DNA from: Paenibacillus sp.
Lineage (GTDB): Bacteria; Bacillota; Bacilli; Paenibacillales; YIM-B00363
Length of the DNA stretch: 32,000 nt
Direction: 5' to 3'
Assembly (NCBI GenBank): GCA_031181325.1
Contig: JAPSKX010000033.1
Span: 231 to 32,230 of the forward strand
Positions 10,150 to 27,748 of the stretch are shown here, in pieces (the stretch's first letter is position 1; the number at the start of each line of letters is the position of its first letter). The notes below the pieces were generated by a model. It had not been told where the DNA came from. It searched no databases and saw only the letters and a program-made list of their open reading frames with translations. The translations under genes were made by a program, and so were the position numbers.

Positions 10150-10292
10150 AGCGCTCCCTCCCTTCAATAAGTATAGCATGCGTCCAGGAGAGAGCGTTCG
10201 TCCGAACATCCAAAGATTCCGTACCGTTTGCCAAAGAATCCGAAACCTTTTCCCCCCGAAATCGCATTACAATCAGGTCAACTCAGGGAAAG

Positions 10293-11264: not shown

Positions 11265-11276
11265 AGGGGGGATTCG

Positions 11277-12143
11277 ATGCGACGTTCGCTCGGGGAGAGA
11301 ATATTCCAACGATTCAACGTTTGCTTGCTGGCCGCGCTGGGCTTCGCCGCCGTGTTTCCGATCTACTATGTGTTCATCGTCTCCATTACCCCCTACATCG
11401 AGCTGGTACGCAACGGCGGCTTTATCGTCGTTCCGAGGGACATTACGTTCCAAGCGTACGGGGAGCTGCTGCAGGATCCGAAGATGACGCGGGCGCTGTT
11501 CAACTCCGTCTATATCACCGTCGTCTCGACGCTGCTCGGGGTCGTCTTGTCCCTGATGCTGGCGTACGGCCTGTCCAACCGGACGATGCCCGGCAGGAAC
11601 GCGGTCCTGCTCTTGCTCTTGATTACGATGCTGTTCCACGGCGGCATGATCCCGCAATACATGCTGATCAAGTGGCTGGGCTTGTTGAACACCTACGCGT
11701 CCTTGATCTTGTCGGGCACCGTCAGCGTCTTCAACGTGTTGATCATGAAGACGTTCATCGAAAATTTGCCGGATAACCTGGAGGAAGCGGCGCTGATCGA
11801 CGGGGCGACGGAGGCCGGGTACTTGGTTAAGATCGTGCTGCCGCTGTCGCTGCCGATCGTCGCGACGGTAGGCTTGTTCTACGCCGTCGCCCACTGGAAC
11901 GCGTTCTTCGAAGCGATTCTATACATTTCGGACGTGAGCAAGCATCCGCTGCAGGCGGTGCTGCGGGAGATGCTCAACGTGCCCGACCCGTCCGAATTCG
12001 AGGGCGATATCAGCCAGCTCGTGCCGACGGAGGCGACGAAGATGGCGGCCGTTATGATCTCGATCGTGCCGGTGCTGCTCATCTATCCGTTCCTGCAGAA
12101 ATATTTCACGAAAGGGGTGTTGCTGGGATCTATCAAAGGTTAG
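11277..12143 (+). CDS. Carbohydrate ABC transporter permease (LplC-like)
   Basis: 288 aa with TM segments and an EAA-loop-like LEEAALIDGATEAGYLVKIVLPL. Confidence 0.9.
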   Translation: MRRSLGERIFQRFNVCLLAALGFAAVFPIYYVFIVSITPYIELVRNGGFIVVPRDITFQAYGELLQDPKMTRALFNSVYITVVSTLLGVVLSLMLAYGLSNRTMPGRNAVLLLLLITMLFHGGMIPQYMLIKWLGLLNTYASLILSGTVSVFNVLIMKTFIENLPDNLEEAALIDGATEAGYLVKIVLPLSLPIVATVGLFYAVAHWNAFFEAILYISDVSKHPLQAVLREMLNVPDPSEFEGDISQLVPTEATKMAAVMISIVPVLLIYPFLQKYFTKGVLLGSIKG

Positions 12144-12214
12144 CGTATAGAGAGAAGCGTTGTCCTGCGGATACGGAATCATGCTGCATTACAGAAGGGG
12201 AGGTTCGGATCGGT

Positions 12215-13843
12215 ATGAATCGGAAAAGGGTGCTTTCCATCGCGCTGGCGACCGCGCTTGTGTTCGTCGTCGCTTGCAGCAACGACGCCGGGGTGAAGGA
12301 AGAGGAGAACGGCGGAGCGCAGACGCCGCCGGCGGAAGGCGCGAAGGACCCGGGCGCGTCGAGCGGGGCGGAGACGCCCGCAGCCGCGCCGGAGGAGCCG
12401 GCGACGATCGAGGTGGAGCGCGGGTTCTCCGTCAGCGTCGATATTCCGCCGCCGGAGCAAGACGTGATCCTGCAGACGATCCGCAAGGACCTGAACATCG
12501 ATCTGAAGTATGCGTTCACGTTCGGCAAGTCGGACGATTGGCGGGCGAAGATGGGCGCTCGCGTCGCGGCGAACGACTTGCCGGAAGCGATTATGTATTT
12601 CAACCTCGGGGATTATCGCAAGGCGCAAGCCGACGGGTACTTGCTCCCGCTGAACGACGTGTTCAACCTCGAGACGATGCCGGCGAATATCAAGTCGTAC
12701 GTTACGGAAGGGATGCTGTACTACATTACCGACCCGAACGGCGAATATCACGGCTTGCCGTCGCGCCCGCCGTCTCTCAGCAACGGTCTCTTCATCCGCA
12801 AGGACTGGCTCGAGAAGCTGGACCTGGCGATGCCGACGACGACCGACGAGCTGAAGGACGTCATGATCGCGTTCGCGAACCGGGATCCCGACGGCAACGG
12901 CAAGAAGGATACGTACGCCTTCTCCGCCAGCGGCTCGTCGATGCAGCAGCAGCTGTGGTGGCAATTCCTGTCCGCCTTCACCGGCGACGTTCGCGGCACG
13001 TATTGGGTAGACGATGCAGGCGCGCTGCGCGGGGGATTGGCGAGCCCCGAGATGCGCCAATACTTGCAATTCATGCATGATCTCATGAAGGAAGGCGCGC
13101 TCGATCCGGATTTCGCGACGAACACGCTGGATCGGGTAACGCAGAAGGTCGAGCAGGGACAGGTCGGCATCTTCTACAACGCCGGTTACCCGACCGCCAT
13201 CGTAGACAACATGAAGACGATCAATCCGAACGCGGACGTCGTCGTGCTGCCTCCGGTGACCGGTCCGGCCGGCCAGGCGTCCAACAACGGCAAGACGATC
13301 GCCCCGAACGGGGTGCTGGGCATTACGGTCAAGCTGAAGGACCAGCCGGAGAAGGTGCGGAAGATCATCGAGCTCGTCGATTGGATGACCGGCGACGTCG
13401 GGGAGGAGCTGCTTACCTTCGGCGCGGAGGGCGTCAGTCATAAGAAGACGAACGGCGTCGTCACGGAATTTATCGCGGGCAAGGAGAGCAACTACCTGGC
13501 CGCGTATTCGCTGGTCGGCACGCCGGCGCTGAAGGAGAAGCCGGAAGCGGTGAAGGTGTTCTATCCGGATCCGTTCCTGTACGAACAGCAGATGATGCTG
13601 CTCGGCGACCGGCCGAAGTACGGCAGCGTCTTCGCGCTCGGTCAGGCGAAGGAGCCGACGGAGCTGGCGGCGGATCTGAACAAATACGCCGGCGAGATGA
13701 TGATGAAGTTCATCTACGGCAACGTCCCGCTGGACGACGCGAACTGGAACGAATATGTAGAAACTTACATGACGACCTACAAAGGGCAAGAGTACCTCGA
13801 CATCGTGACGGCGGAGTTGAAGAAGAACGGCGTCCTGAAATAA
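12215..13843 (+). CDS. Extracellular solute-binding lipoprotein (LplA-like) of the ABC importer
   Basis: 542 aa. The signal peptide has the lipobox LVFVVAC, followed by a low-complexity linker and a large family-1 SBP-type body. The RBS is GGGGAGG. Confidence 0.9.
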   Translation: MNRKRVLSIALATALVFVVACSNDAGVKEEENGGAQTPPAEGAKDPGASSGAETPAAAPEEPATIEVERGFSVSVDIPPPEQDVILQTIRKDLNIDLKYAFTFGKSDDWRAKMGARVAANDLPEAIMYFNLGDYRKAQADGYLLPLNDVFNLETMPANIKSYVTEGMLYYITDPNGEYHGLPSRPPSLSNGLFIRKDWLEKLDLAMPTTTDELKDVMIAFANRDPDGNGKKDTYAFSASGSSMQQQLWWQFLSAFTGDVRGTYWVDDAGALRGGLASPEMRQYLQFMHDLMKEGALDPDFATNTLDRVTQKVEQGQVGIFYNAGYPTAIVDNMKTINPNADVVVLPPVTGPAGQASNNGKTIAPNGVLGITVKLKDQPEKVRKIIELVDWMTGDVGEELLTFGAEGVSHKKTNGVVTEFIAGKESNYLAAYSLVGTPALKEKPEAVKVFYPDPFLYEQQMMLLGDRPKYGSVFALGQAKEPTELAADLNKYAGEMMMKFIYGNVPLDDANWNEYVETYMTTYKGQEYLDIVTAELKKNGVLK

Positions 13844-13916
13844 GGCGCCTCGACCGGAGGGCCGGATCTAGAGCGGAGCGGCCTTCCGAAATACTCTTTA
13901 GATGGGGTGAGTCGTA

Positions 13917-15524
13917 ATGGAGAAGAAGCACGAAGGCGGGGAAACGAAGAACGAGAAGGTCGATCGCAGACGGGTATTGAAAATGCTGGGCGCCACCGGC
14001 GCGGCGATCGTCGCCGGCGGACTGCTGCAAAATCGTCTTGCAAGCGCTTTACCGTCGGTGACGGAGGATGTGTACGGCGATGCCGGCGCGGCCTTGGGCA
14101 AGGGATTCGGTCCCGGAGGCGTGCCGGGGCGGCTGGAGGCGTTGGCGGAGCAGGTCGCGGCGCTGGAAGCGTCGATCGGCGTGCCGAGCGGGTTCCGCCC
14201 GGAGGACGCGGACGTCATCAGCAAGCTGAACAACGAATCCGTCGACCGCGCCGTCAATCTGCGCTGGTACGGCGCGGTCGGAGACGGCGTAACCGACGAT
14301 ATGGCGGCGTGGGACGCGGCGATCGCGGCGGTACCGGCCGGCGGGGCGCTCTTCGTTCCGCCGGGGACGTACTACAGCGCATTAGGCTTCGCGTGCCCCC
14401 GCGGCGACATTACGCTCTTCGGCGCCGGCCCGTCCTCGCATCTCGTCGGCGGGTCGCAGGAGAACACGCTGCTCGTCGGCACCGCGGACCGATCCACCCG
14501 CGTGAAAAACGTGAACGTGCATTCGCTCCGCTTCACCCAGCAGCCCGGCCCGAGCGGCAGCGGCGCGGACAACAATTACGCTGGCGTCAAGATTTGGTAT
14601 TGCGATCGCGCGGCGATCTACAATAACGACTTCGAGAACTGCGACGTCGGCGTCAGCCTCGCCGGGGGCAATCATCTGCTCGGGTTCCCGGGGCGCGTCA
14701 CGTATCGCAATACGGTCGCGATGAACCGGATGCTGAATACGCGGAAGATGGGTATCGAGATCTTTTTCCAGGACCATGCTTTCGTCTACGGCAATCAGAT
14801 GATCAACGAAAATTCGTTCCCGGCGGCGGAGAGCCACGCGATCCGCAATATCGGCTCCCATCATTCCTATATCGTCGCGAACGAAGCCCGTCGCTTCCGC
14901 ACCGGCATCTCCAATCAAGGCGGGCAGTCGAACGGGTACCGGGATTGCCGCAACTATGTCAACGCGCACAACAAGTTCCGCGACGTCGTGAAGGGCATTA
15001 TGGGGACCGTCGGGACGCACGAAGGCCAGGTGTTGTACAACACGCTCGAGAACGTTCGGGATTTCGGCATCGAATACCGCTGGGAGACGCTTAGCGGCAA
15101 CTACGTCGGTTGGGATCAGGTCGACGTCGTCGGCAACCTGATCGCGGCCGACCCGAATTCGACCTCCTCGAGCCGAGCCGCCTCGTTCGGAGGCGGGGCC
15201 CGCCTGACGTACCGAGGGAATCGCTCGCTCGGCTTCGGCGACGGCATGTCGTCGGGCGCGTCCTATCACGTGTTCCTCGATAACATCACGAAGATCGCCG
15301 TCATCGAAGGCAATTATTTCGAGGATGGGTACTACGTCAGCGATACCGATCGCAATCTCGGCGTGCGCGTCCGGAACAACGCGAAGACCGTCGTCTCGCG
15401 CAACAACGTCTTCGTGTCGCCCGTTCCGGACCCGGCCGAGCGGAACAAGCAGGAGTCCGGCTCGGGACAGCTGCTGAAGGGCTTCGCCGGCGTGGCCGAC
15501 ATGAACGATCATCTGCAGCCGTAA
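13917..15524 (+). CDS. Tat-secreted right-handed beta-helix protein (pectate-lyase-superfamily / glycosidase-like)
   Basis: 535 aa with a twin-arginine signal DRRRVLKMLGATGAAIVAGG...ASA. The motif VNLRWYGAVGDGVTDDMAAWDAAIAAVPAGGALFVPPGTYY is typical of Pectate_lyase_3-type beta-helix enzymes. Periodic N/G-rich beta-helix repeats follow. Confidence 0.8.
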   Translation: MEKKHEGGETKNEKVDRRRVLKMLGATGAAIVAGGLLQNRLASALPSVTEDVYGDAGAALGKGFGPGGVPGRLEALAEQVAALEASIGVPSGFRPEDADVISKLNNESVDRAVNLRWYGAVGDGVTDDMAAWDAAIAAVPAGGALFVPPGTYYSALGFACPRGDITLFGAGPSSHLVGGSQENTLLVGTADRSTRVKNVNVHSLRFTQQPGPSGSGADNNYAGVKIWYCDRAAIYNNDFENCDVGVSLAGGNHLLGFPGRVTYRNTVAMNRMLNTRKMGIEIFFQDHAFVYGNQMINENSFPAAESHAIRNIGSHHSYIVANEARRFRTGISNQGGQSNGYRDCRNYVNAHNKFRDVVKGIMGTVGTHEGQVLYNTLENVRDFGIEYRWETLSGNYVGWDQVDVVGNLIAADPNSTSSSRAASFGGGARLTYRGNRSLGFGDGMSSGASYHVFLDNITKIAVIEGNYFEDGYYVSDTDRNLGVRVRNNAKTVVSRNNVFVSPVPDPAERNKQESGSGQLLKGFAGVADMNDHLQP

Positions 15525-15551
15525 CGCGGTTCGACCGCATCCCGCTTGGTT

Positions 15552-15592
15552 ACGAGACGGAGACGGAGACGGAGACGGAGACGGAGACGGAG
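15552..15592. repeat. Hexanucleotide microsatellite (GAGACG), six perfect units plus partial units
   Basis: Read directly: the perfect units are at 15554-15589. They are flanked by the partial ACG and GAG, and run into the GGAGGGA RBS of the next gene. Confidence 0.95.
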
Positions 15593-15599
15593 GGACAAA

Positions 15600-16682
15600 A
15601 TGCAGTATTTCAACACGCAAGCGTATAGGGAAGGATTGGCTCGAACGAACGGCCCGCGACGCTTCGACGCGGCTGCCATCCCGGAGGGCGCGGAGCGGTC
15701 TGCTTGGCAGGGGGCGTTCCGCGCCGCCCTGCGCGAGAGGCTCGGCTTGCACCGCATCGGCGTTGAGCCGGTCGAGCTGTCGCCGCGGCTCGTCGAGACG
15801 ATCGAGCGGGAAGGGTATACGCGGGAGAAGCGGTATATTACGACGGAGCCCGGCGTAGAAATCCCGTTTTATGTGCTGCTGCCTCGCGGCCGCACGGGAC
15901 CGTTCCCGCTCGCGATCGTTCCCCACGGACACGGAAGTCGAGGGAAGGAGACGTACGTCGGCAATTACGCCTCGGAGGAGGAGCGGCGCAGCGGGGAGGA
16001 GGGCGAGCGGGATCTCGCGCTCCAAGCGGTGTCGCACGGCTACGCGGTCATCGCTCCCGACGTGCGCGGGTTCTACGAGATGGGCCGAGAGGAAGATGCG
16101 GGGGCGACGCGCGGCCCCGGCAATTCCTGTGCGCATCTGCAACGCATGGCGCTGATGTACGGACGCACCTTGATCGGGGAGCGGGTGCACGACATGGGGC
16201 GCTTGATCGACTACGCGCTGACGCGTCCGGACATCGACGGCGGGCGCATCGTCATGACGGGCAACTCCGGCGGCGGCACGGTGACGCTGTTCGCCGCGGC
16301 GCTCGACGTGCGCATCGCCGTCGCGGTGCCGGGATCGTACGTATGTACCTTCGAGCAATCCATCGTCCCGATCGAGCATTGTCCGTGCAATCTCGTGCCG
16401 GGCATCTTGGAGCTCGGCGAGATGTACGACATCGCCGGCTTGATCGCGCCGCGTCCGCTGCTCGTCGTGCACGGGGAAGGGGACGACATCTATCCGATCG
16501 CCGGAACGCGACGCGCGTTCGCGGCGATTCAGACCATCTACGCCCGCTGGGGCGCGGCGGGTCGCTGCGAGCTGTTCGTCGGGAACGGCGGGCACCGGTA
16601 CTACAAGGAACGCGTATGGAGCTTCGCGGCGGAAGGGCTGTCGGCGCTTAGCGTCGCGGGAGGGCACGACGATGGGCGGTGA
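15600..16682 (+). CDS. Alpha/beta hydrolase (putative carbohydrate esterase)
   Basis: The start is at ATG 15600 (MQYFNTQAY), 5 nt after GGAGGGA. The track start at 15546 merely translates the microsatellite as poly-Arg. The nucleophile elbow is GNSGGG. There are also HGHG, an acidic HGEGDDIYP and a C-terminal GNGGHRYY. Confidence 0.8.
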   Translation: MQYFNTQAYREGLARTNGPRRFDAAAIPEGAERSAWQGAFRAALRERLGLHRIGVEPVELSPRLVETIEREGYTREKRYITTEPGVEIPFYVLLPRGRTGPFPLAIVPHGHGSRGKETYVGNYASEEERRSGEEGERDLALQAVSHGYAVIAPDVRGFYEMGREEDAGATRGPGNSCAHLQRMALMYGRTLIGERVHDMGRLIDYALTRPDIDGGRIVMTGNSGGGTVTLFAAALDVRIAVAVPGSYVCTFEQSIVPIEHCPCNLVPGILELGEMYDIAGLIAPRPLLVVHGEGDDIYPIAGTRRAFAAIQTIYARWGAAGRCELFVGNGGHRYYKERVWSFAAEGLSALSVAGGHDDGR

Positions 16683-18417
16683 GATCGGGCTGCGCGCGGG
16701 ATTGGCGTCGATGTTCTATTCCGCTCCATGGGGCTACAATCCGCTCGATGCGGCGGCGACGGACACCGCAGTATCGCATATGGCGGTTTCGTGCTGCCGC
16801 CGGGACAGCGCCGCGCTGCAGCTTCTCGTCTGCGCCGAGGACGATCTGCTGCTCGACGTCTCGGGGAACCCGCTGTTATGGAAGGGGGGAGACCGGACCG
16901 TCGTTCGGGCGGCGGTCGAGCTGGAAGGCGCGGCGGAGGCCGGGATTCGGATCGAAACGAAGCTGGTCGGTCTCGTCGAGGATTACGACCGGATTCGCCG
17001 GCCGGATCCGCTGCTCGACGCCGCGTCGATCGAGGTGGAGAAGGGCAGGATTCAGCAGGTGTGGATCGAATGTCATGTAGGCAAGCATACGCCTCCCGGC
17101 GACTATCGCGGCGTCGTTCGCGCGTTCGCGCGGCGCATGTTCGGCGACGAGACGGTTGCCGCTTATTGTACGTTCTCGCTGCGCGTCCACCCGGAGACGC
17201 TGCCGGAGAGCCGCGAGTACAGCTTCTACTTGGATCTATGGCAGCATAACGCCAACATCGCCCGCAAGCACGACGTTCCGCTCTGGTCGGACGACCACCT
17301 CGCGATTATCGATCGGTACATGGAGTCCTTGGTCGCCCTCGGGCAGAAGGCCGTATCGGTCATCGTGTCGGATGCGCCATGGTGCGGACAGCGATCCTAC
17401 CGGGACGGCGAACCGTCCGATCTGTTCGAGTACGGCATCGTCGCGGTGACGAAGGGGCGGGACGGCCGCTTCGAGTACGACTTCTCTGTATTGGAACGAT
17501 ATCTTTCGATGGCGGAGCGGCGGGGCATGGCCGAGGAGATCGAGCTGTTCGGCTTGCTCGGACTGTGGGAATCGCCCGATGCGCCGGCGCTGTACCGCTC
17601 GCTCGTCGAGGGCTATCCCGACGCGATGCGCGTGCGTTATTACGACCGGGCGACCGGCGTCTATCGCTATATCCGCGGGAGGGCGGAGCTGGAAGCGTAC
17701 ATCTCGGCGCTGTACGGCTTCTTCGTCTCGACCGGACGCGCGGCACGAGTCCGCGTGCTGGCGGACGAACCGAGCGACGCGGCGCGGTTGGAGCGGCAGC
17801 TGGCGACGCTTCGCCGATTGGCGCCGAGCTTCCGCTACAAGATCGCGTTGGATCATGCCGAGTTCATCGGCCGGCAGCTGCCGGACGTGACGGATTATGC
17901 GCCGATTCTCGGCTGCGTCGCCCGGCAATACGAGGAGTTGCAAGCATTGAAGCGCAGTATTCCGGGGCGGCTTCTGTTCTACGTGTGCAGCGGTCCGAAG
18001 CGGCCGAATACGTTCTTGTCGTCGCCGCCGATCGAATGTCGGCTGCTGCCGTGGCTTGTCGAAGTATTCGGGTACGACGGCTTCCTCCGATGGTCGTACA
18101 CCGCTTGGCCCGACCGGCCGCTCGAGCGGCCGTACTACCGGCCGACTCGCTGGGAGACGGGGGACCTGTTCCTCGTCTACCCCGGCCGGAACGGCGCGCC
18201 GATATCGAGCTTGCGGTACAAGCGGCTGCAGCGGGGCATTCGCGATTACGAGCTGATGCAGCTGCTGAAGCGGACCGGGCGCGCGGAACTCGTCGCCGAA
18301 GCGCTGCGGCGGGTCATCCGGTACGATCATCCCGTCGAGCTATTGTCGGCGAGCGGCAAGAAGGCGGAGGAGCTGTATAGCTTGAATCCGGAAGACTACG
18401 AGTTGATAAGGAGTTGA
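16672..18417 (+). CDS. DUF4091-like glycoside-hydrolase-related protein (function unknown)
   Basis: 581 aa, overlapping the previous stop by 11 nt. The C-terminal part (GFLRWSYTAWPDRP...GDLFLVYPGRNGAPISSLRYKRLQRGIRDYELMQLL) matches my memory of DUF4091/GH123-like proteins. This is unverified. Confidence 0.65.
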   Translation: MGGEIGLRAGLASMFYSAPWGYNPLDAAATDTAVSHMAVSCCRRDSAALQLLVCAEDDLLLDVSGNPLLWKGGDRTVVRAAVELEGAAEAGIRIETKLVGLVEDYDRIRRPDPLLDAASIEVEKGRIQQVWIECHVGKHTPPGDYRGVVRAFARRMFGDETVAAYCTFSLRVHPETLPESREYSFYLDLWQHNANIARKHDVPLWSDDHLAIIDRYMESLVALGQKAVSVIVSDAPWCGQRSYRDGEPSDLFEYGIVAVTKGRDGRFEYDFSVLERYLSMAERRGMAEEIELFGLLGLWESPDAPALYRSLVEGYPDAMRVRYYDRATGVYRYIRGRAELEAYISALYGFFVSTGRAARVRVLADEPSDAARLERQLATLRRLAPSFRYKIALDHAEFIGRQLPDVTDYAPILGCVARQYEELQALKRSIPGRLLFYVCSGPKRPNTFLSSPPIECRLLPWLVEVFGYDGFLRWSYTAWPDRPLERPYYRPTRWETGDLFLVYPGRNGAPISSLRYKRLQRGIRDYELMQLLKRTGRAELVAEALRRVIRYDHPVELLSASGKKAEELYSLNPEDYELIRS

Positions 18418-18423
18418 TCGCGG

Positions 18424-18597
18424 ATGCCGTTCGCGAATATCGGGATCGGCGGGCTGATTCTCGTGCTGGTGTTGGCCTTGCTCATATTCGGTCCTAAGAA
18501 GCTCCCCGAGCTCGGCCGCGCCTTCGGCCGAACGCTGAGCGAATTCAAGGGAGCGACCCGGGACATGCTCTCCGAGCCCGAAGACGAGAAACGTTAG
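18424..18597 (+). CDS. tatA: Twin-arginine translocase subunit TatA/E
   Basis: This ORF is not in the track (57 aa). It encodes [48 protein letters not shown]..., the canonical TatA TM helix, FGPKKLP hinge and amphipathic helix. Confidence 0.85.
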
Positions 18598-18743
18598 AGT
18601 TCCTGATTAGGCAGTAACGGATGGACGCGGAAAATCCCTAATTTGCCTGCGGCCGGCGCCGCGAATTGTGCTGGACATCCGGCGGAAACGATGTTACCTT
18701 AAGTGTGTATCAAAACCGGATTCGTTATGACATGATGCATTCG

Positions 18744-18816
18744 AACGCGCGTAACTGGCGAAGCGTGGGGAGACCACGAGGGAGCGCGCGGGGATATAGC
18801 CGTACGCCTGGGCGAA
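18744..18816 (+). promoter_or_regulatory. ZTP (ZMP/AICAR-sensing, pfl motif) riboswitch aptamer
   Basis: P1 is CGCGCG (18746-51) paired with CGCGCG (18785-90). The conserved ACTGGCGAA is at 18754-62. The P2 hairpin is CGTGG-GGAGA-CCACG, followed by GGGAGCG. After a linker comes CCGTACGCCTGGGCG, matching the conserved CCGCCUGGGC pseudoknot module. Confidence 0.8.
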
Positions 18817-18860
18817 GTGTTTGACGGAAGGGGATTCCCTTGTCAGACACTTTTTTTTTC
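18817..18860 (+). terminator. Intrinsic terminator (riboswitch expression platform)
   Basis: A 14-bp stem forms between 18817-18832 and 18837-18850 (GTGTTTGAC..AAGGG / CCCTTGTCAGACAC) with a 4-nt loop, followed by nine T. Confidence 0.8.
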
Positions 18861-18883
18861 ATGCACAGAGAGGGGATATGACC

Positions 18884-19534
18884 ATGTTCGCATGGGAGCT
18901 GTTGACGTTCATCGGCACGGTGGCGTTCGCGATGAGCGGCTCGATGTCGGCGATGGAAGAGGAATACGATATCTTGGGCGTGTACGCGCTCGGGCTGGTG
19001 ACGGCGTTCGGCGGCGGCATACTGCGCAATCTCGTCATCGACGCGCCGACGCGCTCCTTGTGGGAGCAGGGCGATCTGCTCGTCACCGCGCTCGTCGCGA
19101 GCTCGGCCGTCTACTTCGCGCCGCGTCTCTGGGCGAACCACGTCCAGAAGTGGGTGTTCTTCGACGCCGTCGGACTCGCCGCCTTCGCCATTCAAGGCGC
19201 GCTGCTCGCCGTCCGGAACGGACTGCCGCTGCCGGCGGTCATCATCGCCGCGCTGCTCACCGGCTGCGGCGGCGGCGTCATCCGCGACATCCTCGCGCGC
19301 CGCAAGCCTCTCGTCTTCCGGGAAGAGGTGTACGGCGCGTGGGCGATGCTCGGCGGCCTCGTCGTGGCGTTGGGCTTCGGCGGAGACGGCTGGCATTCGT
19401 ACGTCTTGTTCGCGGGTCTGCTCGCGCTTCGCATGTGGTCGGTCAAGAAGGGCTGGCAGCTGCCGAAGCGGTCGTTCCGCAGCGGGGCGATCTCCTCGCT
19501 TGCGGAGCGGGAGGCGCAGCAGGTTGCGAACTAG
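18884..19534 (+). CDS. UPF0126 / TRIC-family membrane protein (Pfam Gly_transporter-type repeat protein)
   Basis: MFAWELLTFIGTVAFAMSGSM...GVYALGLVTAFGGGILRNLVID, with an internal repeat ...FFDAVGLAAFAIQGAL...ALLTGCGGGVIRDIL. The start at 18884 lies 8 nt after GAGAGGGG, and the ATG at 18878 is also possible. The track start at 18821 lies inside the terminator. Confidence 0.85.
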   Translation: MFAWELLTFIGTVAFAMSGSMSAMEEEYDILGVYALGLVTAFGGGILRNLVIDAPTRSLWEQGDLLVTALVASSAVYFAPRLWANHVQKWVFFDAVGLAAFAIQGALLAVRNGLPLPAVIIAALLTGCGGGVIRDILARRKPLVFREEVYGAWAMLGGLVVALGFGGDGWHSYVLFAGLLALRMWSVKKGWQLPKRSFRSGAISSLAEREAQQVAN

Positions 19535-19564
19535 TGTTCTGATGGAGCCGCAAAAAAAATAGCC

Positions 19565-19978
19565 CTACAAATACTCGCTCATCTCCGCCGGGATGCCCAA
19601 GCGGACGAGATATTGCTCCGCCGTCTCCCCTTCCCCCGGAGACGTCCCGTGCGACAACAGCTTCAGGGCGAATCGGTTCGCCTGACGTTCGAGCTTGCCG
19701 GGGCGGAACAACGTCTGCCCTTCGATGAAGTAATAGCCGATCCCCTTGTGCAGGCGATCGTGGCCGAGCTCGTGCGCGCAGACGAATCGCTGCCACTCCT
19801 CGGACAAGTTCGAGCCGATCACGATGAATCGTCTGCGCAGTTTCCGGAAATACAGGCCTCTCGTCTCTTCGCCGAGATCGCGGTAACGGACATGGATGCC
19901 GAGCGCCTCCGCGATGCGGAACGGGCAGTTGGTCTTGTAGCGTCTCGTCAGCAAGCGAATCGTATCGTCCATTGGCAT
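19565..19978 (-). CDS. ImmA/IrrE family metallopeptidase (anti-repressor protease)
   Basis: The HEXXH motif is CAHELGHDRLH, in the typical ImmA context (PFRIAEALGIHVRY...FIVIGSNLSEEWQRFV). The start is uncertain: ATG 19978 or 19972 follow AGGGG, and the track's TTG at 20050 would overlap the XRE stop. Confidence 0.8.
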   Translation of the reverse strand: MPMDDTIRLLTRRYKTNCPFRIAEALGIHVRYRDLGEETRGLYFRKLRRRFIVIGSNLSEEWQRFVCAHELGHDRLHKGIGYYFIEGQTLFRPGKLERQANRFALKLLSHGTSPGEGETAEQYLVRLGIPAEMSEYL

Positions 19979-20046
19979 GTCCCCTATAACGTTGCGCCGC
20001 TCTCGATGCAAGCGGCTCTTCCTCCGCCGGAAGCGGCGCCCGGGCG

Positions 20047-20460
20047 TCAACGCTCGGGCGGCTTTTTGCGTTTATTCATCATTTTCGCCTCCCAGAACAA
20101 TCCTGTCAATACGTCCTGCACCCGCTGCTTGTCTTCTTCCGTCAGCGGGACCCCGTCGAACATAATCTCCTCTTCCTCCAGCATCTTCCTCAGATCGCGC
20201 TTGTCCCGGGAAGAAGCCCATTCCGGCGTCTCCTGCGCGCGGATCGGCGAAGGATCCTCCGTGCGCCCGAGCAAATAATCCGACGTCGTATGCAGGAGAT
20301 CCGCGATCTTCGCCAGCGTATCGGCCGGCGGCGTCGCGACGTCCCGTTCGTAATTGGAGAAATTCGCCCGATTCATCCCGAGCCGTTCGGCCATGCCGTC
20401 TTGCGTAAACCCGTGCTTCGCGCGCAGCGCCTTGATTCGTTGCCCCGTCGTCGTTCCCAT
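20047..20460 (-). CDS. XRE-family HTH repressor (ImmR/Xre-like)
   Basis: The N-terminal HTH_3 reads GQRIKALRAKHGFTQDGMAERLGMNRANFSNYERDVATPPADTLAKIADLLHTTSDYLLG. The RBS is GGAGG. It forms an operon with the ImmA-like gene. Confidence 0.9.
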   Translation of the reverse strand: MGTTTGQRIKALRAKHGFTQDGMAERLGMNRANFSNYERDVATPPADTLAKIADLLHTTSDYLLGRTEDPSPIRAQETPEWASSRDKRDLRKMLEEEEIMFDGVPLTEEDKQRVQDVLTGLFWEAKMMNKRKKPPER

Positions 20461-20493
20461 AGCCGCCTCCAGACCGTAAACTACATTTGCACG

Positions 20494-20523
20494 TTGCGTA
20501 AATATGATTTACTGTGCTATAGT
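20494..20523 (+). promoter_or_regulatory. Rightward sigma-A type promoter (towards the sigma-like gene)
   Basis: TTGCGT (20494-99), an 18-nt spacer and an extended -10 TGcTATAGT (20515-23). Confidence 0.55.
20498..20512. promoter_or_regulatory. Operator O1, perfect 6-3-6 inverted repeat GTAAAT-ATG-ATTTAC
   Basis: Read directly. It overlaps the -35 and spacer of the rightward promoter. A degenerate copy GTAAAC-TAC-ATTTGC lies at 20476-20490. Confidence 0.6.
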
Positions 20524-20536
20524 GTCTCTACGAGAA

Positions 20537-20551
20537 GTAAATTTAATTTAC
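20537..20551. promoter_or_regulatory. Operator O2, perfect 6-3-6 inverted repeat GTAAAT-TTA-ATTTAC
   Basis: Read directly. It lies between the two -10 boxes, over both predicted transcription starts. A degenerate copy GTTATT-TTC-ATTTAC lies at 20566-20580. Confidence 0.6.
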
Positions 20552-20555
20552 ACAG

Positions 20556-20584
20556 ATTATACATTGTTATTTTCATTTACGCAA
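20556..20584 (-). promoter_or_regulatory. Leftward sigma-A type promoter (towards the XRE/ImmA operon)
   Basis: On the reverse strand: TTGCGT (20584-79), a 17-nt spacer and TATAAT (20561-56). Confidence 0.6.
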
Positions 20585-20603
20585 CGGGAGGCGGGGTTAT
20601 TTT

Positions 20604-21227
20604 ATGAAATACGAACATGTCGTCGTCGAACAGCTGCGCGGATACGGTCGAATGCTGGCGAGGTTGAAGGTGCTTCAGGCGACCCCGGTCGGGAACGGGA
20701 TGCGGCTCAGTCACGTCAGCGGAGACGATAAGCTGCAGGAGCTGCACCGGAAGCTGAGGGGCATGCCTTCGAAGCTGTATTTAACGAAGCGGGAGCAGGA
20801 AGTAGAGGCGGCCGCGCGCACGTATTTGAAGTCGTACCCGCTCGGCACGAAGGCGCAGCTGCGCGAGGCGAAGCTGCTCATCGGGGAGACGGCGTACGAC
20901 CATGCGCTGCTGCGGGAGCTGACGACCGGCATCCAAGCGGTGCTCGAGGCGCGCGTCGGCACGGCGGAGGGCATCGACGGGGTGCTGGAGCGATTGGCCG
21001 AAATTCAAGATATCGAGCAAGAGAAGGCGCGCATCGACGAAGCGCTTGCCGCGCTGGAAGAGTACAAGGCTACATACAGCCGGCTCCTGCGCCTCCGTTA
21101 TATCGAAGGGAGAGCGGTGGAGGACGTAGCGGACGAGCTGTGCGTCTCGCGGCGCACGTTCGAGCGGTGGCGGCCGCAGGCGGTGCGGGAATACGCGAAC
21201 CTCGTGGGGTTCGGTTACTTAAGTTGA
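20604..21227 (+). CDS. Sigma-70 region-4-containing late-gene activator (Xpf / phage sigma-like)
   Basis: 207 aa with a GGGAGG RBS. The C-terminus YSRLLRLRYIEGRAVEDVADELCVSRRTFERWRPQAVREYANLVG looks like sigma-70 region 4 / DUF1492-type phage regulators. Its position is equivalent to xpf in PBSX. Confidence 0.65.
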   Translation: MKYEHVVVEQLRGYGRMLARLKVLQATPVGNGMRLSHVSGDDKLQELHRKLRGMPSKLYLTKREQEVEAAARTYLKSYPLGTKAQLREAKLLIGETAYDHALLRELTTGIQAVLEARVGTAEGIDGVLERLAEIQDIEQEKARIDEALAALEEYKATYSRLLRLRYIEGRAVEDVADELCVSRRTFERWRPQAVREYANLVGFGYLS

Positions 21228-21232
21228 AGCGG

Positions 21233-21266
21233 GGCGGAGATCCGTTGGGATCTTCGCCTCGTTTTC
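21233..21266 (+). terminator. Intrinsic terminator after the sigma-like gene
   Basis: GGCGGAGATCC / GGATCTTCGCC forms an 11-bp stem (one G-U pair) with loop GTTG, followed by TCGTTTTC. Confidence 0.7.
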
Positions 21267-21309
21267 TATATTGTGGAATTAATGGCGGATGAATGGCGGT
21301 TCGTTGGCG

Positions 21310-21338
21310 TTCCGAGCCCGGTTTTTCCGTGTTACTAT
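21310..21338 (+). promoter_or_regulatory. Candidate promoter of the tail-operon leader
   Basis: Weak -35 TTCCGA (21310-15), a 17-nt spacer and an extended -10 TGtTACTAT (21330-38). It is preceded by a direct repeat AATGGCGG at 21281-88 and 21292-99. This call is speculative. Confidence 0.3.
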
Positions 21339-21367
21339 GATATCGTCAAGACAATAGGCAAGAGCGC

Positions 21368-21404
21368 AAGACGACGGCCGGAAGCGGCGGGTCGTCTTTT
21401 TTTT
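21368..21404 (+). terminator. Strong intrinsic terminator inside the leader, 69 nt upstream of the first tail gene
   Basis: AAGACGAC (21368-75) pairs with GTCGTCTT (21391-98), and 3 further inner GC pairs form. Eight T residues follow. Confidence 0.75.
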
Positions 21405-21472
21405 GCGTGGCTTGACGGAGAGGAGGCGAGGGCGATGCTCGGACACAGTTTGGAAAAGGGGAGGCGGCGACG

Positions 21473-21904
21473 ATGACCGTCGCATGGAACGACCTTCGCG
21501 GTGCGGTGATCGCGCGGCTCGCGGCGAGGCACCCGGACGTCGTCGTCTCGGGCGAGACGGACGAGCCGGCGCCCGCCGAGGCGCGCTGCTTCGTGCGGCT
21601 CGCTTCCGCGGCGCAGGCGCGGCTGACGGGGAACCGGTACCGGCGCACGGCCGCGTTCGAGGTGCGTTACGCGGCGCCGGGGGCGACGCCCGAGGCGCTG
21701 CACGGCATGGCCGAAGCGTTGTACGACGATCTGGAGCGCGTCGAGCTGCCGGGCGACGGTCGGTCGCTGCGCGGCGACGGCCTCGGGCACGAGATCGTCG
21801 AGGGGGCGCTTCGCTTCACGGCGAGCTACGCGTTCGACGTCGTTCGCTCGCGGATCGAGGCGCCGAAGATGGGACGGCTGGAACAGGAGGGGTATCTGGT
21901 ATGA
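21473..21904 (+). CDS. Tail-completion / tail-terminator-like protein (XkdJ position)
   Basis: 143 aa with a GGGGAGG RBS. It lies directly upstream of the small ORF and the sheath gene, as xkdJ does in PBSX. The assignment rests on position and size only. Confidence 0.55.
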   Translation: MTVAWNDLRGAVIARLAARHPDVVVSGETDEPAPAEARCFVRLASAAQARLTGNRYRRTAAFEVRYAAPGATPEALHGMAEALYDDLERVELPGDGRSLRGDGLGHEIVEGALRFTASYAFDVVRSRIEAPKMGRLEQEGYLV

Positions 21905-22080
21905 ACGAGCGGGAGAACGCGGGTGCGCCGGTCTTCGCGAAGGCGCAGCTGCTCGCATCGACACGGTATTCGGGCGTCGAGAAGGACGTCCTGCGCGCGC
22001 TGCTGCCCGACGGGGCGTCGGCGACGCACGAACAGGCGGCGCGGCTGCTGCGCCAATTTCAAAACATGGAGGTTCGATAG
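21901..22080 (+). CDS. Small hypothetical protein (59 aa; XkzB position)
   Basis: MNERENAGAPVFAKAQLLASTRYSGVEKDVLRALLPDGASATHEQAARLLRQFQNMEVR. Its start overlaps the previous stop as ATGA, and it ends 2 nt before the sheath start. It sits within a longer spurious track ORF (21403-22080). Confidence 0.5.
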   Translation: MNERENAGAPVFAKAQLLASTRYSGVEKDVLRALLPDGASATHEQAARLLRQFQNMEVR

Positions 22081-22082
22081 AT

Positions 22083-23399
22083 ATGGCAGGAGGCACATGG
22101 ACGACGCAAAACAAGGTGAGACCGGGGGTCTACGTGAACTTCGACAGCGCGCCGACGACGCTCGGCGCGCTCGGGGAGCGCGGGGTCGCTTCCGTCGCGC
22201 TGCCGCTGAGCTGGGGGGCGCCGCAGACGGTGCTCGCGATTCAGGCGGGCGAGGACGTGAAGGAGCGCCTCGGGTACGATTTGAGCGCGCCGCAGCTGCG
22301 GCTCGTGCGCGAGGCGCTGAAGCGGGCTCGCACGTTGCTGTTGTATCGGCTGAACGCGGGGACGAAAGCCGCGGTCACGCAGGGCGGCCTGACGGCGACC
22401 GCGAAGTACGGCGGCGTCCGGGGGGACGACCTGACGATCGTCGTCCGGACGAACGTCGACGAGGAGACGTTGTTCGACGTCGTGACGTACTTGGACGACG
22501 AGGTCGTCGATACGCAGACGGTCGCCTTGCTTGAGGAGCTCGTCGCTAACGCGTGGGTCGACTTCGGCGGCACCGGCGCGCCGACGACGACGGCCGGCGC
22601 GCGGCTCGTCGGCGGGGCGGACGGCACGGTCGCGAACGGCGACCACACCGCGTACCTCGCGGCGATCGAGCTGCAGGACTTCCAGGCGCTGGCGCTCGTG
22701 TCCGACGACGCGACGCTCAAGGGAATTTACGCGAGCTTCGCGCGACGGCTGCGCGAGGACGAAGGGCGCAAAATCCAAGTCGTCGTTGCGGGATACCCGT
22801 TGGCGGATTACGAAGGCGTCATCAGCGTCAAGAACGGCGTGAAGCTGGCGGGCGGCGCGACGATCCCGGCGAGGGAGGCGACCGTCTGGGTGGCTGCGGC
22901 GACGGCGGCGGCCGGCGCGAACGAGTCGCTTACGTACCGCGCGTACGACGGCGCCGTCGACGTCGACGAGCGGTACCCGAACACGCAGATCGAAGCGGCG
23001 CTGAACGCCGGCGAGTTCGTGTTCGTCCCGAGCCAAGGGCGCGCCGTCGTGGAGCAGGACATTAACTCCTTCACGAGCTTTGGGCCGGGGAAGGGGAAGC
23101 ATTTTCGGAAAAATCGAGCGCTTCGGGTGTTGGACGGGCTCGCGAACGACTGGAAACGCATCTTCGAGACGTATTACATCGGCAAGGCGAACAACGACGC
23201 GGACGGGCGGAACTTGTTCCGGAAGGAATGCGCCAAGGTCGTCGAGTCGTATCAGGGGCTGGGCGCGGTGCAAAACTTCGATGCGCAGACGGATCTGCTC
23301 GTGCTGCCGGGCGCGGAGTCTGACGCGGTCGTCGTGGAGGCGCATATTCAACCGGTCGACGCGATCGAGAAAATTTACATGAAAGTGAAGGTGGGCTAA
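22083..23399 (+). CDS. Contractile phage tail sheath protein (XkdK-like)
   Basis: 438 aa. The N-terminus MAGGTWTTQNKVRPGVYVNF is the hallmark start of PBSX/SPP-type sheath proteins. The size fits. Confidence 0.9.
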   Translation: MAGGTWTTQNKVRPGVYVNFDSAPTTLGALGERGVASVALPLSWGAPQTVLAIQAGEDVKERLGYDLSAPQLRLVREALKRARTLLLYRLNAGTKAAVTQGGLTATAKYGGVRGDDLTIVVRTNVDEETLFDVVTYLDDEVVDTQTVALLEELVANAWVDFGGTGAPTTTAGARLVGGADGTVANGDHTAYLAAIELQDFQALALVSDDATLKGIYASFARRLREDEGRKIQVVVAGYPLADYEGVISVKNGVKLAGGATIPAREATVWVAAATAAAGANESLTYRAYDGAVDVDERYPNTQIEAALNAGEFVFVPSQGRAVVEQDINSFTSFGPGKGKHFRKNRALRVLDGLANDWKRIFETYYIGKANNDADGRNLFRKECAKVVESYQGLGAVQNFDAQTDLLVLPGAESDAVVVEAHIQPVDAIEKIYMKVKVG

Positions 23400-23401
23400 C
23401 G

Positions 23402-23866
23402 ATGGCATACTTGCGAGCGGGCGACACGATTTCCGGCCAAGAGGGGCGCGCGTACGCCACGATCGGCGGAGAGAACCACGAGATGTTCTACGTGAAGAAC
23501 ATTCGGGCGACGGCGGAGAAGCAGAAGGCCGAGGTGAAGACGCTGGGCCGCCGCGGCGTGCAGCATAAGGCGACGGGCTGGAGCGGCACCGGCGAGATGA
23601 CGATCTACTACGTCACGTCGAAGTTCCGGGAACTGATGCTGAAGTACATCAAGGACGGCGTCGACACGTACTTCGACATTACGATCACGAACGAGGACCC
23701 GTCGTCGTCGATCGGCGCGCAGACAGTGACGCTGAAGGGCGTCAACCTGAACGAGGTCGTCATGGCGGCGCTCGACACGGAATCGGAGGCGCTCGAGGAG
23801 GACGTCGCCTTCACGTGGGAAGACATCGACATGTCGGCGACGTTCGTCGATCCGGCGCTGGGATAA
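23402..23866 (+). CDS. Phage tail tube protein (XkdM-like)
   Basis: 154 aa, starting immediately after the sheath gene. DTISGQEGRAYATIGG...EVKTLGRRGVQHKATGWSGTGEMTIYYVTS is typical of XkdM-type tube proteins. Confidence 0.85.
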   Translation: MAYLRAGDTISGQEGRAYATIGGENHEMFYVKNIRATAEKQKAEVKTLGRRGVQHKATGWSGTGEMTIYYVTSKFRELMLKYIKDGVDTYFDITITNEDPSSSIGAQTVTLKGVNLNEVVMAALDTESEALEEDVAFTWEDIDMSATFVDPALG

Positions 23867-23925
23867 ACGGGACAGCGGGCGTGAGGCGAACGGCCTCCCG
23901 CGAACAGGGGTCCGGCGCGTGAATC

Positions 23926-24051
23926 GGAAAAGCGCCCGCTTATTCCCGCTTTAGCCGGGGAAACCGGGCATTGGACGGGAAAACCTCCGTTCTGGTTCGC
24001 CGAATGTCGCGGTTATCGCGAAAATCCGGTGAATGGACTGGAGGTTTTCCC
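23926..24051. repeat. Repeat family copies in the tube-chaperone spacer (core GGRAAANCCTCC and its complement)
   Basis: GGGAAAACCTCC (23977-88) and GGAGGTTTTCCC (24040-51) form a perfect 12-bp inverted repeat. A degenerate copy GGAAAAGCGCCCGCTTAT lies at 23926-43. Confidence 0.8.
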
Positions 24052-24219
24052 TTTCATCTTGCGAAATCCGCCAGATTTTTCCGTTCAGGGGTGTCCGCGA
24101 GTAGCATGATGCGGCAGTTTGTTTTTGCTCAGGTCGTTACTCGCGGGAGTCCGCTGCGCTTCTTTGGGCGCATGCAAGACAACGAGCAGGTACATTCGAA
24201 CCTATGGAGGGTGCATGAA

Positions 24220-24642
24220 ATGAGCGATTTAAGCGTATTTTTCGCGCAAAACGCCGTAGCGGAGACGACGGAAGCCGTCGTCGTCTCCCCGCGGTTCCGC
24301 GATGCGGCGGGGGAGCCGGTCGCGTGGAAGCTCCGCAGCATGACGGAGGAAGAGAACGAGACGTGCCGCAAGGCGGCGACGAAGCATGTGAAAGGCAAGA
24401 ACGGCATGCGCGTGCCGGAGACGAACGCCGACGAATACATGGCGAACCTCGTCGCGGCGAGCGTCGCGTTCCCGAACCTGAAGGACGCCGAGCTGCAGAA
24501 GTCGTACGGCGTCATGGGCGCGGGGCCGCTGCTGAAGAAGATGCTGCTGCCCGGCGAGTATGCGCTGCTCATTCAGAAGGTGCAGGAGCTGAACGGCTTC
24601 GACCGCGACATGAACGAGCTCGTGGATGAGGTAAAAAACTAA
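24220..24642 (+). CDS. Tail assembly chaperone (XkdN-like), 0-frame product
   Basis: The start is ATG 24220 (MSDLSVFFAQNAV...), 8 nt after GGAGGG. The track start at 23971 has no RBS and crosses the repeat-rich spacer. The gene lies between the tube and tape-measure genes. Confidence 0.8.
   Translation: MSDLSVFFAQNAVAETTEAVVVSPRFRDAAGEPVAWKLRSMTEEENETCRKAATKHVKGKNGMRVPETNADEYMANLVAASVAFPNLKDAELQKSYGVMGAGPLLKKMLLPGEYALLIQKVQELNGFDRDMNELVDEVKN
24633..24639 (+). promoter_or_regulatory. Programmed -1 ribosomal frameshift slippery heptamer A-AAA-AAC
   Basis: An X-XXY-YYZ heptamer lies in the 0 frame (GTA AAA AAC TAA) one codon before the stop. It is followed after 7 nt by the hairpin GGAGGGCG (24647-54) / CGCCCTCC (24680-87). 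Confidence 0.7.
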
Positions 24643-24815
24643 TCAAGGAGGGCGACGGGGAGGCGAACTACGCCTACTACGCCCTCCATGAGCTCCGCAT
24701 CCTCCCGCACGAGCTCGTCCGGATGAACCGCTACGAGAAGGCGGCGATCTACGCGATGATCGACGTGCGGGTGGAGAAGGAGAAGCAATCCCGCCGCCGG
24801 CCGAAGAATCGGTGA
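24639..24815 (+). CDS. -1 frame extension of the tail chaperone (XkzA position); expressed as a fusion 24220..24639/24639..24815
   Basis: The -1 frame reads LIKEGDGEANYAYYALHELRILPHELVRMNRYEKAAIYAMIDVRVEKEKQSRRRPKNR* (58 aa). It has no in-frame start codon behind the local AAGGAGG, so frameshifting is the simplest route to expression. Confidence 0.65.
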   Translation, partial: LIKEGDGEANYAYYALHELRILPHELVRMNRYEKAAIYAMIDVRVEKEKQSRRRPKNR

Positions 24816-24844
24816 AGGCGCCCTGGGCCCTACAGTCCGGAGGA

Positions 24845-25028
24845 ATTAGACGGAAATCCTCCCGCTAATGTCGGGGAATGCGGCTTTGCGGCGCACTTAA
24901 ATGGAAATGCTCCTACCAATTACGGGGGAATGCGTCTTTGACAGGTGGAGCGCGCCGATTAAGATGGAGGGTTTCCCGCTAAACTTCGATTTCTGGCGGT
25001 TTGGAGCCGAATTAGTGGGAGGATTTCC
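24845..25028. repeat. Repeat family copies in the chaperone-tape measure spacer
   Basis: There are tandem units of about 45 nt at 24845-88 and 24896-940 with a 51-nt period. Complementary cores lie at 24966-77 (GGAGGGTTTCCC) and 25017-28 (GGGAGGATTTCC). The stretch 24852-69 can pair with 25011-28 over 18 bp, including one G-U. Confidence 0.8.
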
Positions 25029-25082
25029 TTGTAGCAATGAGGAAGCCGAAGGCCGCAGGTGAAGGAAAGGGGGGGAGAGGCT

Positions 25083-27077: not shown

Positions 27078-27742
27078 CCGATTACTACCATATGTCGCTG
27101 AGCTTTAACAGGCAAGCGGAAGCGATCATTTTCCCCGTGCTCCCGGCATCGATTGAACTCAAACGCAAGGGGCAAAGCAAGACGTACGACATCGTGGGGC
27201 TCGGCCAAGTGAGCGTTATCCATGCGCGGGAGCTGGCGGAGATCAGCTTCGAAAGCATGTTCCCGGCCGGACAGTTTCCATATCAAAGCGACGTGCGCGA
27301 TCGAGGGCTCGTATATAACGAACCGATCAAATACGTGAATTATATTGCGAAATGGCAAGACAGCAGGCACCCTTGCCGTTTCATTCTTTCGGGGGAGAGG
27401 CTTCAGCTGCCGATCAATCTCCCGGTGAGCATCGAGCAATTCGACCGATGGGAGGAGGGCGGCGCCCCCGGCGACATCCATTTCCGGATCACGCTCAAGG
27501 AGTACGTATTTCATGCGCCGCGCAAGGCGGGTGCGGATCCCGCGACAGCGGCCGCCCGCCCCGACGAGCGGGTCCGGCCGGATACGTATACGATGAAGCC
27601 CGGGGACACGCTCTACGGCATCGCCCGCAAAATCTACGGCGACAGCAACCGTTGGCCCGACATTCAAAAGTTGAACGGCATCACGGACGCGAAGCTTCGC
27701 AGTCTGCCGGTCGGTCTCGTGCTTCGCCTGCCGAAGGAGTGA
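27074..27742 (+). CDS. LysM-domain tail protein (XkdP-like)
   Basis: 222 aa, with its start overlapping the tape-measure stop as ATGA. The C-terminal LysM reads YTMKPGDTLYGIARKIYGDSNRWPDIQKLNGI...LPVGLVLRLP. Confidence 0.85.
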   Translation: MTDYYHMSLSFNRQAEAIIFPVLPASIELKRKGQSKTYDIVGLGQVSVIHARELAEISFESMFPAGQFPYQSDVRDRGLVYNEPIKYVNYIAKWQDSRHPCRFILSGERLQLPINLPVSIEQFDRWEEGGAPGDIHFRITLKEYVFHAPRKAGADPATAAARPDERVRPDTYTMKPGDTLYGIARKIYGDSNRWPDIQKLNGITDAKLRSLPVGLVLRLPKE

Positions 27743-27748
27743 GCGAAG

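Follow-up and report, generated by a model that had tools for sequence, protein, structure and literature searches.

The ZTP aptamer and its TRIC gene

The DNA analysed here is a 32,000-nucleotide stretch of contig JAPSKX010000033.1 from a Paenibacillus sp. assembly (GCA_031181325.1), referred to below as the window. Its forward strand contains, in consecutive order, an aptamer of the riboswitch class that senses 5-aminoimidazole-4-carboxamide riboside 5'-triphosphate (ZTP) and the corresponding monophosphate (ZMP) (pfl motif, 18741-18820), an intrinsic terminator (18814-18859), a ribosome-binding site (18870-18875) and a gene encoding a membrane protein of the trimeric intracellular cation (TRIC) channel/UPF0126 family (Pfam Gly_transporter, 18878-19534). 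The whole probably represents a ZTP-class riboswitch that acts as a transcriptional ON switch for this single prokaryotic TRIC-family channel/transporter gene, and we infer its response to the ligand.

The element is a bona fide ZTP-class aptamer. In the Rfam covariance-model scan (cmscan), family RF01750 (ZMP/ZTP, pfl motif) scored 57.8 bits, above its gathering score of 39, and covered the full model (positions 1-86 of 86) with E-values of 4.4e-7 in the whole window and 1.9e-8 in a local scan. The ZTP call made in a preliminary description of the window, for which a covariance-model search with RF01750 had been proposed as a check, is thereby borne out. No other RNA family exceeded its threshold at the aptamer site in the Rfam scan, and the two matches above curated thresholds in the whole window were RF01750 and one tRNA. 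A permissive scan of 18300-19700 added only a match to mir-598 at 20 bits, which is meaningless.

All aptamer elements named in the preliminary description were located where it had placed them. Helix P1 is formed by CGCGCG(U) pairing with (G)CGCGCG (18746-18752 with 18784-18790) and is extended by inner pairs between 18755-18756 and 18780-18781. ACTGGCGAA lies at 18754-18762, the P2 hairpin CGTGG-GGAGA-CCACG at 18764-18778 (18764-18768 with 18774-18778, loop GGAGA) and the motif GGGAGCG at 18780-18786. Downstream, the core of helix P3 pairs GCC with GGC (18799-18801 with 18811-18813), within a P3 of 5 bp that spans 18797-18815 in the Rfam model, and the segment CGCCTGGGCG (18805-18814) contributes the 3' strand of a 4-bp pseudoknot between GGCG and CGCC (18757-18760 with 18805-18808). 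The conserved nucleotides of ZTP aptamers, ACUGGCG, GGGAGC and CGCCUGGGC, are all intact within 18746-18813. Furthermore, the minimum free energy (MFE) fold of 18735-18880 contains P1, P2 and P3 together with a long hairpin at 18814-18853.

The gene downstream of the aptamer contains two in-frame ATG codons, at 18878 (218 amino acids) and 18884 (216 amino acids), and its stop codon ends at 19534. The second start is more likely based on its spacing to the ribosome-binding site and on the public protein P0001, which consists of 216 amino acids and is 100% identical to the encoded protein. The ribosome-binding site, read from the sequence as GAGGGG, lies 10 nt past the U-tract of the terminator and is free in the predicted folds. 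The protein contains two repeats of PF03458 (Gly_transporter, formerly UPF0126; 131.3 bits) and matches the prokaryotic TRIC structures 5wuc, 5wtr and 5h35 in the PDB over nearly its full length (E-values of 2e-30 to 3e-29), with the 5wuc match (2.3e-30) covering residues 5-204. The translation also contains the GGG kink motifs FGGGILRN and CGGGVIRD of transmembrane helices (TM) 2 and 5, as well as further pore hallmarks, namely the AFA/AFAIQG phenylalanines and the cytoplasmic-lock residues Asp and Arg. Orthologues are named 'trimeric intracellular cation channel family protein' by NCBI. The previously proposed order of terminator, ribosome-binding site and two-repeat UPF0126/TRIC gene is thus in agreement with the folds, the PF03458 matches and the TRIC structures. 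The gene appears to be monocistronic, since the next gene, which encodes an ImmA/IrrE peptidase (19565-20050), is convergent and located on the minus strand.

Expression platform and proposed switching mechanism

The terminator consists of a hairpin at 18814-18853 and a run of nine T residues at 18851-18859, as obtained from MFE folds. Its stem is composed of a 13-bp outer helix, a 2-nt bulge and a 4-bp inner helix closed by a GAUU loop, with a predicted energy of about -19 to -21.7 kcal/mol. The '14-bp terminator plus T9' of the preliminary description therefore stands as a terminator followed by nine T residues, but its stem length was only approximate. Owing to the bulge, the hairpin was overlooked by a simple terminator scan of 18400-19700.

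The hairpin begins immediately behind the aptamer, with a spacer of 0-3 nt between the P3 core and the terminator. The overlap of the two elements is limited to 2 nt (G18814 and A18815), which form the outermost pairs of the Rfam P3, one of them a non-canonical A-G pair. P3 and the full terminator are present together in the MFE structures of both 18741-18862 and 18797-18862. A longer alternative terminator pairing into P3 or the pseudoknot was sought in the folds, and none was found; such an extension is precluded because the 3' strand of the terminator runs on as a U-run without complementarity to GGGCG.

This arrangement bears directly on how the switch would operate. Model ZTP riboswitches rely on strand displacement: as long as ZMP is not bound, P3 and the pseudoknot are invaded by the 3' half of the terminator. 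An alternative 'tug-of-war' layout, in which termination at an intrinsic terminator is suppressed by a ligand-stabilised fold located just 5' of it, apparently because the two compete sterically for the RNA exit channel, is described in passages of a preprint (Bushhouse, Fu and Lucks, bioRxiv 2026, doi 10.64898/2026.06.17.733018) as accounting for approximately 10% of natural ZTP riboswitches, the majority of them from Bacilli. According to the same passages, nearly all ZTP riboswitches of Bacilli are of this type, with up to four per Paenibacillus genome, and nearly all of 22 tug-of-war examples tested responded to ligand in B. subtilis, aided by NusG. The sequence criteria given there are a spacer of less than 5 nt, a terminator below -15 kcal/mol and a U-rich tract, and the leader in the window possesses all of these features (0-3 nt, -19 to -21.7 kcal/mol and nine U residues, respectively). 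In addition, the preprint dataset contains an Rfam-derived sequence from Paenibacillus antri (VCIW01000009.1:123780-123858) that is near-identical to the window leader, differing at 3 positions across the aptamer and terminator. For this entry, the list gives GAA as the spacer and -16.9 kcal/mol as the terminator energy; it is classed as non-overlapping and is one of three tug-of-war ZTP riboswitches that the list assigns to the P. antri genome. The exact leader sequence of the window and the eight other orthologous leaders described below are absent from the tug-of-war dataset list.

Based on this architecture and the near-identity to the P. antri RNA, tug-of-war steric antitermination is the most likely mechanism of the window RNA, as the terminator follows P3 directly and has practically no sequence in common with the aptamer. 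With classical strand displacement, known from the pfl riboswitch of C. beijerinckii, ligand-free RNA would lose P3 and the pseudoknot to the invading 3' terminator strand. This is the best-studied mechanism of ZTP riboswitches, and the overlap of the terminator base (G18814, A18815) with the two outermost Rfam P3 pairs would offer it a foothold. It is nevertheless quite improbable here: the shared 2 nt with their single A-G mispair, the U-run that cannot pair with GGGCG and the co-folding of P3 with the complete terminator make it inapplicable to this leader, the abutting layout is retained in all 10 orthologous leaders, and the near-identical P. antri RNA is assigned to the non-overlapping class in the preprint list. 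Of the antitermination ON switch originally suggested for this locus, the ON arrangement is hence retained, but not the classical exchange of strands, since terminator and aptamer do not compete for sequence.

ZMP and ZTP build up in the cell when 10-formyl-tetrahydrofolate (10-formyl-THF) is limiting, as established for the ZTP class. In the proposed mechanism, a shortage of 10-formyl-THF would lead to the accumulation of ZMP/ZTP, whose binding to the aptamer (18741-18815) would lock the P1-P2 subdomain to P3 via the pseudoknot. The ligand-stabilised fold would then compete for the RNA polymerase exit channel and sterically suppress termination. When the ligand is absent, the hairpin and the U-run would stop transcription ahead of the TRIC gene.

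Conservation and genomic setting of the riboswitch-gene unit

Homologous loci were gathered in three ways, namely by a scan of one genome per species, by exact-protein look-ups of database homologues and by a metagenome scan. The latter, aimed at close orthologues, recovered only homologues of 30-41% identity, which were used as negative controls. Among the loci obtained, RF01750 was located directly 5' of the orthologous gene and on the same strand in all nine whose protein identity to the window protein is at least 65% (L001, L002, L081 from Paenibacillus turpanensis, L082, L083 from Paenibacillus sp. TRM 82003, L084, L169, L170 and L171), with Rfam scores of 51.6 to 61.1 bits. Together with the window protein, these nine form one clade of ten ZTP-linked proteins in a neighbour-joining tree. 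No ZTP element was identified beside more distant homologues, neither with Rfam in 56 loci nor with motif scans in all of the approximately 155 loci. Similarly, a regular-expression scan for ZTP cores across 172 loci gave convincing matches in the nine orthologous leaders only; weak plus-strand matches in L074, L077 and L136 were rejected after a negative Rfam recheck.

The genes flanking the riboswitch and the TRIC gene vary between loci, and in the alignment of L001 with L002 the upstream similarity sets in sharply with the first aptamer nucleotide, so that riboswitch and gene are inherited as a unit. The ten aligned aptamers show no variation in the conserved core, P2, the P3 core or the pseudoknot, and P2, P3 and the pseudoknot are therefore uninformative for covariation. 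P1, in turn, exhibits compensatory changes at five pairs (CG/UA and GC/AU), as exemplified by CGCGCG/CGCGCG versus UGUGUG/CACACA. Overall, 91% of cells are paired in the 10-sequence alignment compared to 29-56% in slid controls, six pairs carry substitutions on both strands, and the observed covariation score was reached by none of 500 shuffles. Furthermore, each of the ten leaders contains a hairpin with a U-tract that starts 0-3 nt after GGGC, with differing stem sequences and terminator energies of -12 to -29 kcal/mol (that of L082 was read from the alignment).

Several observations weigh against the proposed explanation. The mechanism itself is known from one preprint of 2026. The ZTP element is absent from the seven nearest outgroup loci, which have protein identities of 52-61% (L003, L004, L085-L088 and L172), and as this sister clade lacks the riboswitch, ZTP control is a lineage-specific acquisition rather than a family-wide trait. 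In three of the seven, the TRIC gene starts only about 35-42 nt past its upstream neighbour. In addition, a promoter scan of 18400-19700 called no sigma-70 promoter, and the spacer between the aptamer and the upstream gene tatA (18424-18597) folds no better than shuffled sequences (z of 0.08) and contains no tatA terminator. Manual inspection gave only weak -10 candidates (CATGAT at 18731-18736), and no conserved promoter was identified in the upstream alignment of the three closest loci. Transcriptional read-through from tatA is therefore possible, as no terminator was seen behind this gene. The lack of a detected promoter between tatA and the aptamer, and of a separate terminator for tatA, would also be expected if the aptamer were a chance or decayed, non-functional sequence and the hairpin merely terminated tatA transcription. 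This explanation is effectively refuted by conservation: the match extends over the full-length model with an E-value of 4e-7, every nucleotide of the consensus core is intact, and the element recurs with covariation in 9 other genomes, in which the upstream gene is not tatA.

The RNA class, the platform type and the near-identical P. antri sequence (in Rfam and the tug-of-war dataset) are already catalogued, and the gain in this respect is incremental, because class, architecture and a near-identical sequence are known. The preliminary description had been uncertain whether the association with a TRIC gene was already on record. In the literature searched, which excluded Kim et al. 2015, no pairing of a ZTP riboswitch with UPF0126, TRIC, COG2860, YeiH or a glycine transporter was found, and none of these names occurs in the first 200 of the 438 supplement files of Weinberg 2010. 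The study of Kim et al. 2015 reportedly lists ZTP-associated genes. The TRIC/UPF0126 gene is probably an unreported, lineage-restricted member of the ZTP regulon.

Upstream of the riboswitch, the window contains a carbohydrate-utilisation cluster (2646-18597) that extends from a beta-galactosidase of glycoside hydrolase family 35 (GH35; 2646-4397) through a family 123 enzyme (GH123; 16672-18417), with tatA as its last gene. It includes an AraC-type response regulator (6723-8447, minus strand), a histidine kinase (8395-10209, minus strand), an ABC solute-binding protein (12215-13843) and an esterase-like alpha/beta-hydrolase open reading frame (ORF; 15546-16682). The 5' end of the latter contains a perfect hexanucleotide repeat, GAGACG, in 6.5 copies (15554-15592), which would encode a run of arginines if the TTG start is real and may represent a start-codon artefact or a phase-variable tract. 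A tRNA-Gly(CCC) gene at 620-693 (+) has no relation to the riboswitch.

The TRIC gene is directly followed by a PBSX-like contractile-tail element (19565-30467). In addition to the ImmA/IrrE peptidase, it encodes an XRE repressor (20047-20460, minus strand), a sigma-like regulator (20604-21227), a tail terminator (21473-21904), sheath (22083-23399) and tube (23402-23866) proteins, a 672-amino acid ORF without a Pfam match that is perhaps a tape measure (25059-27077), a YqbQ-like protein (27749-28720) and baseplate J (29328-30467). As no capsid or terminase genes are located between the regulators and the tail genes, the element may be a tailocin or a defective prophage.

In three of the orthologous loci (L083, L170 and L171), a gene for a TauE/SafE-family (PF01925) membrane protein is found some 1 kb beyond the TRIC gene, and pheS/pheT are likewise located downstream of TRIC in L083 and L169. 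The recurrence of these genes in one sub-branch of the ZTP-linked clade suggests local synteny, and co-regulation by the riboswitch is disfavoured by the intergenic gaps. Riboswitches of other classes were observed in some of the homologous loci. M-box Mg2+ riboswitches are located on the opposite strand just 5' of, and divergent from, the TRIC gene in a Christensenella metagenome-assembled genome (L064, 2629-2790, minus strand) and in a metagenome contig (L138, 837-999, minus strand); they regulate the neighbouring gene and not TRIC, and their occurrence beside two distant TRIC homologues may be due to synteny or coincidence. A cyclic di-AMP riboswitch ahead of a LysM/CAP gene (L084, 719-849, minus strand), a cobalamin riboswitch ahead of cobalamin-biosynthesis genes (L172, 3223-3409, plus strand) and a thiamine pyrophosphate riboswitch ahead of thiC (L088, 1358-1467, minus strand) are likewise not linked to TRIC.

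Putative transport function and comparison with known systems

The classical ZTP regulon includes glyA, folD, fhs, pfl and purH. The gene behind the ZTP aptamer in the window encodes a TRIC/UPF0126 membrane protein, for which any link to one-carbon metabolism would be indirect, by way of glycine-utilisation phenotypes. In randomly barcoded transposon sequencing (RB-TnSeq), UPF0126 genes of five Proteobacteria (SO1319, Sama_2463, Psest_1636, AO353_13110 and PGA1_c00920) were specifically needed for glycine utilisation, on which the proposal of a glycine transporter is based (Price et al.). These experiments are the documented basis that we found for the glycine assignment; the explanation given in the preliminary description, that Pfam renamed the family for its association with glycine riboswitches, could not be verified. 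No glycine riboswitch (RF00504) was detected beside 72 sampled homologue loci at Rfam gathering thresholds.

Glycine feeds the glycine cleavage system and, via FolD, the formation of 10-formyl-THF, and is also a direct purine precursor via PurD. Based on this pathway knowledge, ZTP control is in accordance with the glycine proposal, as glycine would regenerate 10-formyl-THF and feed purine synthesis. Once induced, the TRIC protein would move a small one-carbon-related solute across the membrane, with glycine as the best-supported candidate. We tentatively suggest that the ZTP-controlled TRIC clade represents a channel or transporter for a solute of the one-carbon pool (glycine, possibly formate) that is switched on when 10-formyl-THF is short. 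Uptake of glycine by the window protein is plausible, judged from relatives of about 35% identity, and would conflict with the K+ activity of an archaeal homologue. Two points count against it: the glycine phenotypes are Proteobacterial, and the homologues fetched from Pseudomonas and Photobacterium are only about 33-38% identical to the window protein; furthermore, the activity seen for archaeal SaTRIC in bilayers is a different one, namely K+ conduction.

This latter activity raises the alternative that the protein is a monovalent-cation (K+) channel, which ZTP would induce under folate or purine stress to balance ions, membrane potential or pH. Close homology to solved prokaryotic TRICs, the K+-selective conductance of SaTRIC, the pore hallmarks of the sequence noted above, including the GGG kinks, and the NCBI name of the orthologues are all consistent with such a channel. 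We nevertheless consider it rather doubtful, because K+ channels are not known to be connected with the ZTP regulon, whose other members are purine and one-carbon genes, the available genetics tie the UPF0126 family specifically to glycine utilisation, and the authors of the TRIC structures located no cation-binding site in the pore.

Alternatively, the protein may handle another one-carbon solute or operate in the opposite direction. Export could remove the glycine that GlyA produces from serine along with 5,10-methylene-THF, thereby pulling the GlyA reaction forward, and formate uptake could supply formate-THF ligase. With glyA, folD, fhs and pfl among its classical members, the ZTP regulon covers formate supply; a channel-like protein would let solutes follow their gradient both ways, a single substitution (D99A) apparently reverses the cation/anion selectivity of SaTRIC, and the TRIC topology resembles that of aquaporin and formate channels. 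Glycine export or formate movement would fit the evidence just as well. Both are unlikely in our estimation, as direct evidence for formate transport and for export is lacking and the fitness phenotypes concern the use of glycine, which implies import. The only formate-related data found were negative: a CRISPR interference knockdown of yadS in Shewanella left formate tolerance unchanged, and since it had no effect, that study does not back formate transport.

Riboswitch-gene pairings have repeatedly revealed the functions of orphan membrane proteins, as in the case of fluoride with CrcB and guanidine with SugE. For prokaryotic TRIC/UPF0126 proteins, solved structures and in-vitro K+ conductance are available without an agreed physiological role, and high-throughput genetics points to glycine. 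The retention of a ZTP riboswitch with one TRIC clade across changing gene neighbourhoods constitutes independent regulatory evidence for a role in the response that spans folate stress, purines and one-carbon metabolism. If true, transport of a one-carbon solute would be the first physiological role for prokaryotic TRICs and would speak against 'K+ channel' as the native bacterial function. The window leader is also a clean natural case of a non-overlapping tug-of-war platform, and with ten natural variants at hand the platform lends itself to a dissection of its spacer and terminator requirements.

Compared to the models for RF01750, the riboswitches of Clostridium beijerinckii pfl and Fusobacterium ulcerans, the window RNA shares the P1-J1/2-P2 domain, the variable linker, the P3 hairpin and the H-type pseudoknot, as well as the conserved nucleotides, a terminator-based platform and ON logic. 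It differs in that its terminator abuts P3, whereas theirs invades P3 and the pseudoknot, and in that its target is a TRIC/UPF0126 membrane protein instead of a purine or folate enzyme. The P. antri tug-of-war RNA resembles that of the window in its GCC/GGC P3 core, a spacer of at most 3 nt, a terminator below -15 kcal/mol and a U-tract. The passages of the preprint on which this comparison draws do not discuss downstream genes and do not name the P. antri RNA among those tested.

The closest known proteins are the prokaryotic TRIC channels (SaTRIC, SsTRIC, CpTRIC and RsTRIC; E. coli YadS/YicG), of which the window protein matches the PDB entries 5wuc, 5wtr, 5h35, 5wuf and 5h36 with E-values of 2e-30 to 3e-18. 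Among the characterised TRICs, the measured activity is K+ conductance and none has been reported to be controlled by a riboswitch. Like the solved 7-TM TRICs, the window protein comprises about 200 residues with two inverted UPF0126 repeats and GGG kinks in TM2 and TM5. The UPF0126 proteins required for glycine utilisation differ in their Proteobacterial origin, and the scans of such homologues showed neither a ZTP nor a glycine riboswitch beside them. They belong to the same Pfam family and share the same two-repeat architecture with the window protein, and a role in glycine transport would fit a one-carbon regulon.

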